The translations under genes were made by a program, and so were the position numbers. The notes below the pieces were generated by a model, which worked only from the letters and a program-made list of their open reading frames with translations, was not told where the DNA came from and did not search any database. Positions 11,554-57,479 of a stretch of 64,000 bases of DNA are shown one piece after another; position 1 is the first letter of the stretch; each line of letters starts with the position of its first letter. This stretch comes from Eledone cirrhosa (taxonomy: Eukaryota). Location: positions 19,468,001 to 19,532,000 of the forward strand of contig OZ024743.1 of NCBI GenBank assembly GCA_964016885.1, in the 5' to 3' direction.

Positions 11554-11596
11554 TACAGTATTAAATAAATGGAAACTATATTTATAAAACCATATT

Positions 11597-11662
11597 TATT
11601 TCATTATATATATTTCGGGGATATCATATTAACAATATGCTATGCCTTCCTCAGACAAAATA
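11597..11662 (-). ncRNA. Type I hammerhead ribozyme (inverted pLTR copy)
   Basis: Reverse complement of 15952-16017. Confidence 0.75.
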
Positions 11663-12368
11663 CAATATAAACAGTTTTATAGATAAATAGATTCGACATA
11701 CCGTAACACCGACTTGCATTTGGAGAGGTTGAGCTGGCAGTGAACAAATTTTACACAGAGAGAAAGAAAGAGAGAAAAAAGAAAGAAAGACAGAAAACGA
11801 AGAAAAGGAAGAAAAAGAAGAAATGCATGGAATAAAGTAGAGAGATGGAGAGATAGATAAGGAGAAGAACTTCATGTAAAGAAACAGAGAGATATATATA
11901 TATAGAGAGAGAGAGGAAATAGAGATAGATACATATATATAGAGAAAATTAGGTAGTGGGAGGTCAGTTGAGTAAATGTATCAATGGTACATTTATTTAT
12001 TTATTTATTTATTTATTTAGCTCTAGTATTAATGTAAGGGAGATATATATATATAGAGAGAGAAAAAATAGCGAGAGAAAAAATTTAAAAAAATTTAAAA
12101 AATAGCCAGATATATTCGAGGCGTAAAAAAACCCAATGTTTTAATGTATTAGTATTTATAAAACTTCCACTATATTGTAAATATCAGTATTCCTGAATGA
12201 GACAAGTATCCATAGTGTGTGAAAATTAATTATCTTACGTTTAGTTTTTTAAAAAATTCCTATGTTTATGTGATAGCTACAAACATGTTGTAACCCAACA
12301 ATTTTAAATATAACTTTCCATGTATCTTGCTCCAATACTGTTGAGCGCTTTATATTATAACTGGAAAA

Positions 12369-14588
12369 ATGGAATTCTTTAAGATTACTTCCTCTCTAAA
12401 AGACATACCTCTATCTAGAAACAAAGACTTTATAAAACAATTAATAGATAAATCTGACTCTTTTATCAGGAGAATCAGGTGGCGTGCATTCCACTTTGAT
12501 AAATCTAATGCAAACGAAAATGTCTCGGACTTAAACAAAGTTTTCAAATCTAAAAGAAATCCACCCCCTAACAAACTTTTATCTGACTTTGAAAACGATA
12601 TAATTTCTATCATACAAGGGGTCAAATTCAAGAGAAACTTCAAAGGCCAGGAATATCTGAAAGGCATTAAGGATAACATTGAGAGCTTAGAGAAAACTGA
12701 GAAGATCTTGGTGAAATCTGACAAGACCAACAACCTCTATGGAGTGCAGAAAGACATGTATAATGGCCTCATACTGAACGAGCTGAGGAAAAAGTACAAG
12801 GTAGCAGATAAAGCCGAACTTGAGAAAATGAATGTCGAAGCATCTTGTATAATGCACGAGTTGGAAATTGAGAACAGAACACAACCTTTCGTGCCCAGGA
12901 AACCGAAGATCAATATGAAGGATCACAAGAGGAATTTTGAAAATGACCTGCCAGTTAGATTGATCGCACCATCAAAATCGGACCTGGGCAAATTAAGCAA
13001 AAACATTCTTGACAGGGTGATACAGCAAATTAAGAACTTGGATTGTGTATCTAACCTGAGCTTGTGGAAGGGAACTGGAGAGGTTGTTGAGTGGTTTAAG
13101 CAAATTAAATATAACAATAATAATAGGTTTATTCAACTTGATATAGCTAACTATTATTCTTCTATTACCCCTGGTCTACTAAATAAGGCACTAAATTACG
13201 CATTCAAACATACTGACCTAACTAGCAAAGAAATGCATATTATATTATCGGCTAGGAAAACTTTGATAGAATTTAATGACAAATTATGGACCAGAGCAGA
13301 TAGAGATAGCAATTTTGACATAACTATGGGATCATCCGACTCAGCTCAGGTAACTGACCTTGTGGGCTTATTTTTAATCAATTCGCTGCATAGGAAAATA
13401 CCTGGTACTACCGGAGGTTTATATAGGGATGACATGCTTTTACTTATTAATAATAATAACCCTGAACTAAATAGAAAATGTAAACAAATTACAAAATTTT
13501 TTAATTACTTTAATCTTAAAATAGAAATTGAGAACAACCATAGAATAGTCAATTTCCTAGATATAACATTAAATCTCAACACATGTCTCCACTATCCTTT
13601 TCACAAGTTGAATGAAAACTTAAACTATGTCAACTTTAACTCTAACCACCCCAGATCTGTCAAAAACACTATTGTAAACTCTGTTCAAAAACGTATCTCT
13701 AGGATCTCGTCGAATAGAAAGATTTTCGACGAAAAGGCCCAATACTATAATGAAGCATTAGCTAGAGCAGGATATGCTGATAAGATTGTGTACATAGATA
13801 ATGATAGACAAACTAAACAAAGTAACAACTTTTTTAATTACGGCAACACCCTTAACAACTATAATAGAAAGCATTACAATAATTCCAAAGGCCAAAAAAG
13901 AAATAGAACTAGGAACATAATTTGGTTTGCCCCCCCCCCCCCTTTCTCACTAAACATTAAAACCCACATCGCTAAACTATTTTTCAAAGCTCTTGATAAT
14001 CGCTTCCCTAGAACACATAGGTATCACTCAATTTTCAATAGGCATACAATTAAATTAACCTACTCATCCACCAAAAATTTAGCACAAAATATTAATAGAA
14101 TAAATAATAGGAACTTAAAACCTAGTGATAATAGCATAAATAATATACAAGTTAACAAATGTAACTGTAGAGATAGATCTAAATGTCCGTTAAATAACAA
14201 CTGCTTAGTTAAAAATATAGTATACAATTGTAATGTTAATACTGACTCTAATTCTTTTAACTACGTCGGTTCCACATCGACGGAATTTAAACTTCGCTAT
14301 AATAACCACAAGAATTCTTTCACAGATCCAAGCAAAAAATCTTCAACGGCACTATCAGGCGTACTCTGGCAACTTAAGCTAGATAACGTTAGATATTCGA
14401 CGGCTTGGAATATAGTCTCAAGAGGGATTCCTTTTAATTCATCCTCTGAGACATGTGACCTCTGCGCAGAGGAGATATTCTTTATACTAAAATCTAAAAA
14501 TTCCCTTAATCTACGGACAAATTTATTCAGTTGTTGCAAACATAGATTAAACTCAACGTTTAAATATAAATTTAAATTTAAAATGTAG
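12369..14588 (+). CDS. PLE reverse transcriptase + GIY-YIG endonuclease, 739 aa, uninterrupted
   Basis: SDKT motif, KDHK..F...PVRLI, FIQLDIANYY, ITMGS, GGLYRDD, VNFLDITL, CNCR..CPL...C linker, IVYNC...NYVGST..FKLRY.NH GIY-YIG, CDLC..E and terminal CKH. Confidence 0.95.
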   Translation: MEFFKITSSLKDIPLSRNKDFIKQLIDKSDSFIRRIRWRAFHFDKSNANENVSDLNKVFKSKRNPPPNKLLSDFENDIISIIQGVKFKRNFKGQEYLKGIKDNIESLEKTEKILVKSDKTNNLYGVQKDMYNGLILNELRKKYKVADKAELEKMNVEASCIMHELEIENRTQPFVPRKPKINMKDHKRNFENDLPVRLIAPSKSDLGKLSKNILDRVIQQIKNLDCVSNLSLWKGTGEVVEWFKQIKYNNNNRFIQLDIANYYSSITPGLLNKALNYAFKHTDLTSKEMHIILSARKTLIEFNDKLWTRADRDSNFDITMGSSDSAQVTDLVGLFLINSLHRKIPGTTGGLYRDDMLLLINNNNPELNRKCKQITKFFNYFNLKIEIENNHRIVNFLDITLNLNTCLHYPFHKLNENLNYVNFNSNHPRSVKNTIVNSVQKRISRISSNRKIFDEKAQYYNEALARAGYADKIVYIDNDRQTKQSNNFFNYGNTLNNYNRKHYNNSKGQKRNRTRNIIWFAPPPPFSLNIKTHIAKLFFKALDNRFPRTHRYHSIFNRHTIKLTYSSTKNLAQNINRINNRNLKPSDNSINNIQVNKCNCRDRSKCPLNNNCLVKNIVYNCNVNTDSNSFNYVGSTSTEFKLRYNNHKNSFTDPSKKSSTALSGVLWQLKLDNVRYSTAWNIVSRGIPFNSSSETCDLCAEEIFFILKSKNSLNLRTNLFSCCKHRLNSTFKYKFKFKM

Positions 14589-56027: not shown

Positions 56028-57258
56028 TATTCAATTCTTTATCAATTTAGAATCTTTTCTCAAAGGCACATATACATACACCTCTTTAAAATATACCCAT
56101 CTACCTTACTTTAAAGGGCATTATACACTCTATAGTACTCGTTTATTCATTTACCTCATCCTATCTTCTCGTAAAACAATAACATTTGTTTTTGACATTT
56201 TGAATATTCATCCGCAATCATTATTATTTTTTTTCCCTCTATCATAAATCTTTTTAATCTCAATTTCATCCTTAATTTATTATTATATATATTTTTTTAA
56301 TATATACTCATATATTCTTTAAAATATACCCATCTACCTTACTTTAAAGGGCATTATACACTCTATAATACCCGTTTACTCATCACCCTCATTATATCTC
56401 TTCGTAAAACAATAACATTTGTTTTTGACATTTTGAGTATTCATCCGCAATCATTATTATTTTTTCTCTCTATCATAAATCTTTTTAATCTCAATTTCAT
56501 CCTTAATTTATTATTATTATTTTTTTTCTCCCCATCAACGAACTCATTATTAATACATATGAATTCAATATAAAAACTTTAACTTCACATTTTTCTCAAA
56601 TCCTATACATAAACATTTTCTCTTTGCTAATTTTAAGATTCCTACATTTCTCCTTTTGAATATTCACCCACAATTATTATTTTTTTCTCTCTATCTCCAT
56701 ACATAATCTCCCTTCGTTATTTTTTTCTCTCTATCTCCATACATAATTTCCCTTCGTTAATTTTCAAATTCCTTTAATTTATACATTATCTTCCAACGGT
56801 TCCCAACCTCTCTATATTAAAACATTATATCTTTTTCTCAGTTATAAAAACTATCTCTTTCTCTCTATCACCCATCTCTCCCTTTCCACCTTCACTCTCA
56901 TCTCCTCCCCTTTTTTTCATCCTTTCCACCCCCACCCCTCCCTAAATATAATATATTTTTTCCTCGCACATATCCTCCCTTCGTTAATTTTCAAAATTTT
57001 TAATTTATACAGTATCTTCCAACGGTTTTCAACCCCTCTATATAAAATATATCTCCTCTCTGTTATAAAAACTATCTCTTTCTCTCTATCACCCATCTCT
57101 CCCTCTCATCTCCTTCCCTTTTCATCCTTTTCTCTCCCCCCCTCTCTAAATAAAATATTTTTCCCAATATCACACATCAATCTAAAACCACTTTTCATAT
57201 GTTGATTTAAAACTGCACTATCAACAAGTGTTTTTTTAGCCTTCATATCATGTTCTCC

Positions 57259-57329
57259 TGTTTTATCTGATGAAAACACAAATATTATTGTTTGATGATG
57301 TTTGTTTTTGAAATGCGCATAATAAAATA
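57259..57329 (+). ncRNA. Type I hammerhead ribozyme with palindromic stem/loop III
   Basis: TGTTTTAT-CTGATGA-long AU/GU stem II-GAAA-T-GCGC-A-TA-ATAAAATA; predicted cut after 57321. Confidence 0.85.
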
Positions 57330-57479
57330 TATTGAACTCCTTTAACCATCTTTTGATCTTATATTATGCATACTCCAGTCCCACAAACTGTAGAGTGCTT
57401 CTTATCCGATATCTGCATTGCTTTATTGTACTACAATAAAACTCACCTCCTACATATATATATATATATATATATGTAT

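Follow-up and report, generated by a model that had tools for sequence, protein, structure and literature searches.

In L1 twin priming, the second target end primes internally, giving an inverted 5' part and junctions with microhomology; one cDNA stops at the start of the other, the position of internal priming varies and there is hardly any overlap between arms. The canonical unit of EN+ Penelope-like elements (PLEs), the retrotransposons found here, comprises a pLTR, an adjacent inverted 5'-truncated copy and a tail (PMC8557442, Fig. 2 legend; PMC3846280), and section 15 of PMC8557442 treats the origin of PLE inverted repeats and tails as an open question. The closest biochemical system is PAc, a Poseidon element of Anolis, in which two internal reverse transcription starts downstream of the hammerhead motif (HHR) bound the tail in vitro (PMC11167929). 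Both target strands are cut and extended, a dimer is predicted and an RNA element 3' of the start sites is required, with neither a between-strand difference in start site nor primer homology; the steps after initiation are left unvalidated there (PMC11167929).

Insertions and families in the window

The window, the whole 64-kb stretch of DNA analysed, contains seven two-arm insertions with fixed tails and HHR offsets (Table 1). They show the features of an EN+ PLE insertion unit: partial pLTR tandems, an inverted 5'-truncated copy and a one-sided tail, the stretch between a short (S) and a long (L) 3' end. An earlier note had counted at least eight such insertions from unrelated families. Its geometry stands, but the count falls to seven in the window, 58324-59142 being single-armed, and not all of the families are unrelated: the ORFs of families A and B are 65% identical, and the hairpin described below is common to A, B, D, E, F and G. 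The tails it gave for A (88 nt), B (about 86 nt), C (57 nt), E (69 nt) and F (about 79 nt) were confirmed together with their coordinates. Its tail of about 94 nt for 28509-29212 holds in that copy, most genomic copies of family D ending about 6 nt deeper into the tail. The figure of about 90 nt from comparing 27969-28238 with 58324-59142 is correct for the latter copy (H), but the tail is 101-104 nt across family G and the left arm of the two-arm copy comprises only about 72 nt of it. Tail length is 57-104 nt among the window's seven families and reaches about 170 nt in a wider family scan.

Table 1. Positions of insertion arms, tails, hairpins and other features in the window
Feature	Position	Strand	Remarks
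Family A S arm	11554..12286	-	Inverted copy with 5' truncation; 3' end at +51 from predicted HHR cut, running into (TA)n
Family A L arm	12287..16148	+	34-nt pLTR stub and full unit; 3' end at +139 from predicted HHR cut, running into (TA)n
Bulged hairpin, family A 5' copy	12329..12346	+	7 nt 3' of L site, upstream of ATG
739-aa Hydra-clade PLE ORF (putative)	12369..14588	+	Family A; RWR37, DKT118, YRDD352, CxCx5C at 598
Type I hammerhead motif, palindromic stem III	15952..16017	+	Predicted cut after 16009
Family A tail	16061..16148	+	S-to-L stretch, 88 nt
Bulged hairpin, family A	16066..16085	+	5 nt 3' of S site
Family G two-arm insertion	27969..28238	.	Inverted partial-tail L arm (~72 nt) joined to S arm
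Family D S arm	28509..28664	-	Non-autonomous, unit ~410 nt
Family D L arm	28665..29212	+	136-nt pLTR and one unit; tail 94 nt
S hairpins, family D	28714-28759 and 29126-29171		Within L arm
Family C (Neptune-like) L arm	42991..44016	-	57-nt tail, on left side of 42991-44750; inner boundary approximate
Family C S arm	44017..44750	+	
Family F mini insertion	44781..44983	.	L arm (minus, 79-nt tail) and S arm
S hairpin, family F	44830-44853		Within L arm
Family E mini insertion	49341..49559	.	L arm (minus, 69-nt tail) and S arm
Family B S arm	51005..54167	-	Hydra clade (putative), very young; inner boundary approximate
Family B L arm	54168..57453	+	Tail 57368-57453; 86 nt in insertion 51005-57453
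S hairpin, family B	57372-57396		
Family G copy H	58324..59142	+	Single-arm, S-ended; pLTR and unit; own tail value 90 nt
Internal S hairpin, family G copy H	58500-58535		

The minus arm of family A (11554-12286) aligns to 15329-16060 at 94% and the two arms of family B are 99.5% identical to each other, while arm-to-arm divergence is 4-11% in families A, C, E and F. The arms of the family G insertion at 27969-28238 are non-overlapping, a geometry like that of L1 twin priming. In family E the junction lies at the upstream edge of an HHR motif. A reading of the E and F insertions as MITEs or TIR DNA transposons was rejected on their one-sided tails, variable centres and arms extending into a longer element. 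At 17738-17909 (duplicated at about 19587-19759) there are two tail-less ends, a possible counter-example in the window to the pairing of ends described below; the TA-like spacer between them suggests that they are perhaps two single insertions.

The HHR cut of family B is predicted after 57321. Offsets of the 3' ends from the predicted cuts were recomputed and agree with those claimed, at +51/+139 in A and +46/+132 in B, and relatives end at +140 at 18499 and at about +144 at 40688 (counted by hand). Family G units contain an HHR core, and none was matched in family D with the pattern used. The HHR calls rest on motif reading; of the 167 Rfam matches to the window, the 150 listed include no hammerhead or other relevant family, and five metagenomic loci likewise gave none.

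In the 739-aa ORF of family A, the reverse transcriptase motif YRDD352 and a Cys linker (CNCRDRSKC at 598) are followed at the C-terminus by GIY-YIG-type endonuclease motifs (632-723), with CDLC at 696 and CKH at 723. The family B protein has RW, DKT and CNCRIKNKC by eye and the same order of reverse transcriptase, linker and endonuclease. Both families have the features of Hydra PLEs: a single ORF with a C-terminal endonuclease, an RWK-type motif, DKT, a CxCx5C linker, CxxC and CxH near the end, an apparently canonical HHR motif in the pLTR and (TA)n insertion. The earlier note had called them Naiad families. Naiad elements are described in section 11 of PMC8557442 as carrying an N-terminal GIY-YIG domain upstream of the reverse transcriptase and a DKA motif, with no canonical HHR. 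That label is rejected, as in A and B the reverse transcriptase precedes a C-terminal endonuclease, the motif is DKT (DKT118 in A) and an HHR motif is present. Neptune elements, as characterised in the same article, have a C-terminal endonuclease, a CX2-5CxxC linker and CCHH (PMC8557442); in the broken family C ORFs of locus L160, a Cx4CxxC linker can be read by eye, as can a GIY-YIG-like terminus containing Cys/His. We assign A and B to the Hydra clade, and tentatively regard C as Neptune-like, on their motifs, from which the domains were read because Pfam gave no match for either window protein. Family D has what reads by eye as a Hydra-type ORF start.

One long and one short end per insertion

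Genomic copies of families A-D and G were sampled at 144 loci among the matches listed (top 40), 16 of 160 loci having been left out before the pair count as duplicates or window copies. Also set aside were 12 pairs with one end at the locus edge or interrupted, and a spurious L+L pair (L204) built on 43-nt low-complexity matches. For family B, sampling started at the ORF end, which favours arms longer than 1.8 kb; tail-only A arms, short B arms and L-selected F copies lie outside unbiased sampling.

The 3' ends of the 144 loci fall at two sites, S and L, and the junction register contains 2-4 nt of AU/UA. The two sharp 3'-end peaks, one per arm, and the independent 5' truncation points predicted earlier are both found in genomic copies. 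Two-arm PLE insertions almost always combine one long and one short end: head-to-head pairs in families A-D and G comprise 83 S+L, 1 L+L and 0 S+S (83 S+L against 1 homotypic pair gives a binomial p of 9e-24 under the hypothesis that each arm chooses its site freely), with S+L in 19/19 resolved pairs of family C. Among 30 family E copies sampled by their L end, 19 are S+L, 2 are L+L and 9 have no visible partner, and 27/28 family F copies are one-sided under a query biased to central palindromes. A further 65 arms appear single (43 S-ended and 22 L-ended, as counted prior to manual inspection), a few of them being missed pairs.

Junctions are all distinct in the 83 S+L pairs; 53 overlap by a few bases, 5 are blunt and 25 have inserted bases. 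The outcome that had been set against dual priming, a tail-less arm always inside the tailed arm, is not what is seen, the S arm being inside the L arm in only 37/83 pairs. In 29/83 neither arm is contained, the S arm extending further 5' than the L arm, and simple fold-back is therefore excluded for these pairs. The L arm is tail-only in about 7/83 and lies inside a tandem S arm in 5/83; the 37 and these 5 are each compatible with fold-back too. Tandem arms of up to three units are seen.

The 5' ends of the two arms lie within 5 nt of each other in 5/65 pairs against 0.66 when permuted (p 2e-4). In L063, L064, L163 and L195 the L arm breaks off no more than 2 nt from S, and among 16 S arms long enough to reach an upstream L, those of L110, L116, L120 and L177 stop at most 5 nt from it, counts that are small and descriptive only. 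The L+L cases (L105, L262, L285, L293) look symmetric or contained and indicate that copying need not stop at S.

Both arms of a pair bear the same template haplotype. Discordant diagnostic sites between arms number 2 against 118 expected in 23 pairs of family A, 0 against 9 in 19 pairs of B, and 20 against 70 in 17 pairs of C, and private variants common to both arms number 27, 8 and 17, respectively. Such sharing fits one RNA or two RNAs of one source locus equally. Gene conversion between arms could also contribute, although in family C we take the raw distance to be no lower within pairs than between them (6.1 against 6.9).

A bulged hairpin behind both end sites

A bulged hairpin, RCUC-Y…R-UN-GAGY, sits about 3-8 nt 3' of both the S and L sites, and the copy after L is found in tandem junctions of families A, B, D, G and F. 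The pattern was fixed in writing before a blind family scan, in which the hairpin occurs at the tail start of 18/32 long-tail families (13/26 new) against 0.78 expected; the strict motif is absent from 14/32 long-tail clusters and from 11/40 metagenomic 5' regions. A metagenome search with a single protein query gave no matches, but a homolog profile did retrieve loci, including L326, whose HHR region is identical letter for letter to Penelope-1_NV (PMC8557442, File S2). Two hairpin copies lie upstream of the ORF in 18/40 metagenomic Hydra-type loci from other hosts, and any copy in 7/380 control windows; the metagenomic figures are per-locus counts from a regular expression that took leftmost starts and mis-paired some stems. 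The inner pair is Watson-Crick in 70/71 hairpins (48 C-G, 22 U-A) against 40 when shuffled, covariation being counted by script on anchored stems because MAFFT mis-registered hairpins with variable loops. Minimum free energy folds of the whole region from HHR to ATG recover some of the hairpins, not all.

In family C only a TTTC/GAAA bulged variant follows S, and an L-site tandem junction was found only in one divergent copy. Since this family obeys the S+L rule without the RCUC/GAGY hairpin, the hairpin is clade-specific rather than a general cause. The duplicated hairpin, which the earlier note had missed, likely fixes the two end sites. Families D and G carry two hairpins and obey the S+L rule, an indication that Hydra-clade proteins mobilise them.

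Proposed mechanism and comparison with known systems

We propose that a single RNA probably serves both ends of the cut (TA)n target, each priming at one of two enzymes bound to the hairpins, with strand displacement. The element's protein would bind each hairpin, two copies per RNA and possibly as a dimer, and its GIY-YIG domains would nick both (TA)n strands. Each target 3' end would pair with AU/UA just 5' of its hairpin and then prime. On meeting the S-primed cDNA, the L-primed enzyme would either stall, giving tail-only arms, or displace it. PLE reverse transcriptases are not known to have RNase H, so the RNA would survive. The two cDNA 3' ends would join by microhomology, each templating the second strand of the other; a minor fold-back route may give the rare L+L cases, and failure of one primer the single-arm copies. 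Dual internal priming at two stereotyped sites, as suggested earlier, is supported by the peaks, independent truncations and non-containment, all read from genomic scars, and by PMC11167929. For overlapping arms, strand displacement is retained from that suggestion, and a need for two RNAs or a circular template is dropped. The strand-neutral starts and absent primer homology of PAc, on the other hand, appear to count against the proposed mechanism.

Unlikely, in our judgement, is dual priming on two RNAs, or on multimeric or circular units, of one locus, where one enzyme would work in S mode and the other in L mode. Overlapping arms would then need no strand displacement, RNAs of the same locus would yield the same haplotype, and multimeric or circular units are needed for tandem arms of up to three units and for S arms that stop at an upstream L while their L partner is long (L110, L120). 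Two free RNAs, however, leave unexplained why pairing is strictly S+L, why some L arms end at S and why identical 5' ends are in excess, and the unpaired arms checked include no clear cross-family head-to-head pair (L089 is ambiguous). One RNA with strand displacement is favoured by the haplotypes common to both arms, by the symmetry of the stops and by stalling where the partner begins. It is less probable still that a single L primer is used and the cDNA folds back or self-primes, an endonuclease resolving it at S (PMC3846280; PMC8557442). Shared haplotypes and palindromic centres would follow, and the 37 S-inside-L and 5 symmetric pairs and four L+L cases suit it, but it can give neither the 29/83 non-contained pairs, which rule it out as the main route, nor most tail-only L arms. 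Also against it are the copying past S in L+L cases, the common S-ended single arms, the use of S as a reverse transcription start in vitro by a related PLE, and the covariation of the structure 3' of S as a single-strand hairpin.

Inheritance of the pairing, through wholesale copying of two-arm units from inverted masters already in place or from antisense read-through RNA, is very improbable. Many E and F copies share nearly the same centre, and antisense templates are proposed in PMC3846280, but junctions differ in 83/83 pairs of A-D and G, contradicting inherited palindromes, and the centres of E shift by single bases, with a wide spread among copies sampled by the L end. An assembly artefact is scarcely credible and was rejected: assembly is difficult across inverted repeats and (TA)n arrays, and the B arms are nearly identical, but the arms of A, C, E and F diverge, and an artefact would neither give dozens of families a fixed one-sided tail nor put a covarying hairpin at that spot.

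Returning to priming of both ends on one RNA, we lean slightly towards a landing pad, in which two hairpins would load two RT-endonuclease units on one Hydra-clade PLE RNA and both break ends would prime together. If this is true, twin priming would be programmed PLE integration rather than an accident, and each cDNA would act as template for the second strand of the other; one model would cover the inverted pLTR and the tail and explain why there is no dedicated second-strand step, and non-coding RNAs would borrow a cis module of about 120 nt for mobility. The duplicated hairpin is a concrete mutable cis element, and because the 739-aa ORF is uninterrupted the mechanism is directly testable with the in vitro assay already established. 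In repeat annotation, the motif serves to identify non-autonomous partners of Hydra type, and a small RNA module priming both break ends is of interest for RNA-templated insertion tools.

Compared with L1 twin priming, in which the 3' end is primed at poly(A), both sites here are internal and fixed, most pairs overlap, by up to kilobases, and the outcome is the usual one rather than an accident. PAc belongs to another clade; there an AC-rich stem loop is named, in place of the duplicated bulged hairpin, and the two sites were not tied to the two arms of one insertion (PMC11167929). Families A and B have in common with the Hydra clade, as described in PMC8557442, the C-terminal endonuclease, RW[KR], DKT, CxCx5C, flanking CxxC and CxH, the canonical HHR and (TA)n targets. 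Hydra units are usually under 3 kb in that description (PMC8557442), against 3.8-3.9 kb here, owing to long 3' UTRs, and its section 11 and Files S1/S2 make no mention of a duplicated hairpin. Families D (about 410 nt) and G (about 650 nt) resemble non-LTR retrozymes and non-autonomous PLE derivatives in their short tandem units (PMC7229834; bioRxiv 10.64898/2026.07.22.740005), but bear two hairpins and obey the S+L rule. Canonical EN+ PLEs, in the accounts cited above, have tails of 30-40 bp, against 57-104 nt here, where one-sidedness is measured as a near-strict rule. The models published for them invoke self-priming or endonuclease resolution, both excluded as the main route by the non-contained pairs. 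An inverted arm with a one-sided tail and two internal priming sites are already published; new are the S+L rule, the non-contained pairs, the same-template arms with their stop points and the duplicated hairpin, of which the S+L rule, same-template result and stall points discriminate between the published models.

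Two-arm insertions and the families they belong to

The window holds two-arm insertions of seven Penelope-like element (PLE) families, A to G, whose arms meet at their 5' ends and run at their 3' ends into (TA)n. One arm stops at a short 3'-end position (S) and the other at a long one (L), the stretch between being the tail. The earlier note had described this head-to-head geometry, and self-alignment and reading bear it out for A-G; its tails for A-F were recovered on re-measurement, and its offsets from the predicted hammerhead ribozyme (HHR) cut, +51/+139 for A and +46/+132 for B, were reproduced by computation. 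Its count of at least eight insertions falls to seven two-arm cases (G included, with a partial tail as left arm), because H, a copy of family G, is single-armed.

Two-arm insertions and the single-armed copy H in the window
Feature	Position	Arms	Tail	Basis
A two-arm insertion	11554-16148	minus arm + plus arm	88 nt	self-alignment, direct reading
B two-arm insertion	51005-57453	minus arm + plus arm	86 nt	self-alignment, direct reading
C two-arm insertion	42991-44750	minus arm + plus arm	57 nt	self-alignment, direct reading
D two-arm insertion	28509-29212	minus arm + plus arm	94 nt	self-alignment, direct reading
E two-arm insertion	49341-49559	minus arm + plus arm	69 nt	self-alignment, direct reading
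F two-arm insertion	44781-44983	minus arm + plus arm	79 nt	self-alignment, direct reading
G two-arm insertion	27969-28238	minus arm + plus arm	left arm = partial tail, ~72 nt	
H	58324-59142	single arm		

The 739-aa ORF of family A (12369-14588) encodes a reverse transcriptase (RT), then a CxCx5C linker, then C-terminal endonuclease motifs, together with RWR and DKT. Its closest named homologues come from Argonauta, and it matches the Hydra-clade features set out in section 11 of PMC8557442. The B protein has the same motifs. Judged by motifs and motif order, A and B are Hydra-clade PLEs; the Naiad label given to them earlier is ruled out by the RT-first order, the C-terminal endonuclease motifs, RWR and DKT. 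A homologous locus fetched with a profile of the homologues (L326) has an HHR region matching, by eye, the Penelope-1_NV row in File S2 of PMC8557442. By eye, C looks Neptune-like. D and G consist of short non-autonomous units in tandem, and E is the end portion of a longer element. Family B is very young, with at least 40 copies 100% identical over 451 nt in the 3.0 Gb source genome; it includes tandem trimers and, at sampled locus L124, a long intact ORF, making it a candidate source of an active element.

Other repeats lie nearby. At 17738-17909, and again at ~19587-19759, an F-like family shows two tail-less ends with a TA-like spacer between them; the entire block 17684-18383 is repeated inverted at 19119-19812, flanking an A relative (18499-19175). 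Two 96% identical copies of a 1.5 kb LINE-type RT fragment (16129-17689, 61566-63126) each adjoin a (TA)n array, and degraded APE-type LINE copies occupy 5700-6921 and 34913-37606.

Pairing of the two end positions

For A, B, C, D and G, 160 loci were fetched with tail-free queries (10 A loci, L091-L100, excepted), and 3' ends were placed on natural tandem copies. Almost every end falls at S or L, the two sharp positions anticipated from the window. After removal of 16 duplicate or window loci, 12 pairs with only one end placed and 1 spurious low-complexity pair, the head-to-head pairs comprise 83 S+L, one L+L (L105) and no S+S (p = 9e-24 against free choice of site). Manual checking found S+L pairs beyond the 83 (L064, L067, L180, L100, L110/111, L124/125) that the filter had missed. 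Apparent single arms number 65 (43 S, 22 L). Of 30 E copies sampled from the L end, 19 are S+L, 2 are L+L and 9 have no visible partner; copies sampled with palindrome queries were one-sided, by eye, in 26/26 E and 27/28 F cases. In one E copy, L230, the end falls 30 nt before L, where the L-end sequence is repeated internally, which gives a third, alternative end site. At L089:6889-7891 two S-ended arms, one of C and one A-like, face each other head-to-head across 235 unassigned nt, possibly a cross-family pair or nesting.

At sites polymorphic within a family, the arms of one insertion were discordant 2 times in A (118 expected, 23 pairs), 0 in B (9 expected, 19 pairs) and 20 in C (70 expected, 17 pairs). 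Variants common to both arms and absent from every other sampled arm number 27 (A), 8 (B) and 17 (C), and occur in non-contained pairs too. Raw distance in C is 6.1 per 250 nt within pairs and 6.9 between pairs, which argues against wholesale gene conversion. These comparisons point to one template for both arms; an RNA pair from the same locus also fits.

A bulged hairpin following both ends

In tandem junctions of A, B, D, F and G, each of the two positions, S and L, is followed ~3-8 nt further 3' by a bulged hairpin, RCUC-Y…R-UN-GAGY, and E has a one-base-bulge form after S. The motif was written down before a blind scan for asymmetric inverted arms in TA, covering the window and 244 loci, which gave 224 matches (203 with tails of at least 25 nt) in 41 clusters. 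Under a final regular expression composed after the scan output was seen, 18 of the 32 clusters whose tails reach at least 62 nt open the tail with the strict motif (0.78 expected), including 13 of the 26 such clusters outside the discovery families. A TTTC/GAAA variant takes this place in 2/9 shorter-tailed clusters, C among them. A second group of families (L072, L074, L224, L265, L271 and others) lacks the RCUC/GAGY motif and has short tails of 33-62 nt; some of these families have a TTTC/GAAA bulged stem after S.

Own-genome loci selected for these families (1.34 Mb) contain 152 copies of the motif, of which 119 lie 60-119 nt before a TA run; the reversed sequence contains 3. The 5' regions of Hydra-type loci in public metagenomes carry two copies in 18/40, one in 11/40 and none in 11/40, against 7/380 control windows with the motif, and their features are arranged HHR, hairpin, hairpin, ATG. 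With outer stem and bulge as anchors, the inner pair is Watson-Crick in 70/71 (48 C-G, 22 U-A) against 40 shuffled, and further inner pairs in 48/71 against 22 and 35/43 against 12, shuffles that overstate significance since the sequences are related. In 10 metagenomic loci, from a list preselected for a nearby hairpin, a second copy breaks off 0-8 nt before it. Where exactly an end falls follows AU/UA in the RNA; the L end of A, for example, occupies two registers (21 and 7 copies). This suggests that 2-4 nt of the primer pair with the RNA.

The same hairpin opens the tails of single-arm L-ended elements at 49689-50391, 57480-57714 and 60537-61195 (hairpins at 50290-50315, 57557-57582 and 61036-61095). 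It also appears at the end (3061-3085) of a ~200-nt tandem or dispersed repeat (31651-32652 and related, 3076-3221, 39107-39570, 47608-47727).

Insertion mechanism and known systems

Twin priming is known for L1, and PLE RTs are not known to carry an RNase H. We consider it probable that hairpin-bound proteins let both target ends prime on one RNA. A protein, possibly part of a dimer, would bind each hairpin, and both strands of (TA)n would be nicked. Each target 3' end would then prime 5' of its hairpin on the single RNA, the rear enzyme would stall at the front cDNA or displace it, and the two cDNA ends would join by microhomology. Four L arms halt within 2 nt of S, and of 16 long S arms four end no more than 5 nt from the upstream L (raw counts), which is what a collision of one enzyme with the primer of the other would produce. 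Against this model, C obeys the S+L rule without the RCUC/GAGY hairpin, the strict motif is missing in many clusters, and 42/83 pairs individually fit fold-back of one cDNA.

Fold-back with endonuclease resolution may also account for four L+L cases. It would likewise yield coincident 5' ends, found within 5 nt in 5/65 A-C pairs (0.66 permuted) and expected too if a single broken RNA ends the run of both enzymes. The S arm lies inside the L arm in 37/83 pairs, a tandem S arm encloses L in 5, another 5 are symmetric and in 7 the L arm is about tail length; in the other 29 neither arm contains the other, as the earlier note had foreseen, and fold-back therefore cannot make them. We regard it as improbable, and a template of two same-source RNAs or multimer units as somewhat less so, if still unlikely. 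Inheritance of ready-made palindromes is very hard to credit, since all junctions in the 83 pairs differ (by BLAST ends, with a few bases of overlap in 53, extra bases in 25 and a blunt join in 5) and each was therefore made anew; an artefact is scarcely conceivable.

Arm 5' ends recur ~34 nt upstream of L in A and B (window 12287; L105, L116, L125), which may mark a transcription start within the tail; L116 joins a 34-nt L arm to an S arm beginning at L+1. Junctions in E gather at the upstream edge of the HHR motif, not its cut site (49470-49500; L221-L246, L275-L304).

Our literature search, with subscription literature including the 2004-2006 Penelope papers mostly outside its reach, returned no statement of the S+L pairing rule, PLE twin priming or this hairpin. 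PMC7229834, PMC4209133 and bioRxiv 10.64898/2026.07.22.740005 concern HHRs and retrozymes. PMC11167929 describes two internal start sites that match the tail, extension of both strands and a need for RNA lying 3' of the start sites; its supplementary figure panels may bear on arm pairing. PMC8557442 describes an inverted copy and a tail of 30-40 bp that often sits at one end, and calls the mechanism open; PMC3846280 proposes self-priming on an antisense template. The feature is real and of a known class, its geometry already known. What appears to be new is the near-strict S+L pairing, the evidence for a single template and the conserved hairpin in duplicate; together they make the open mechanism of PLE insertion testable.
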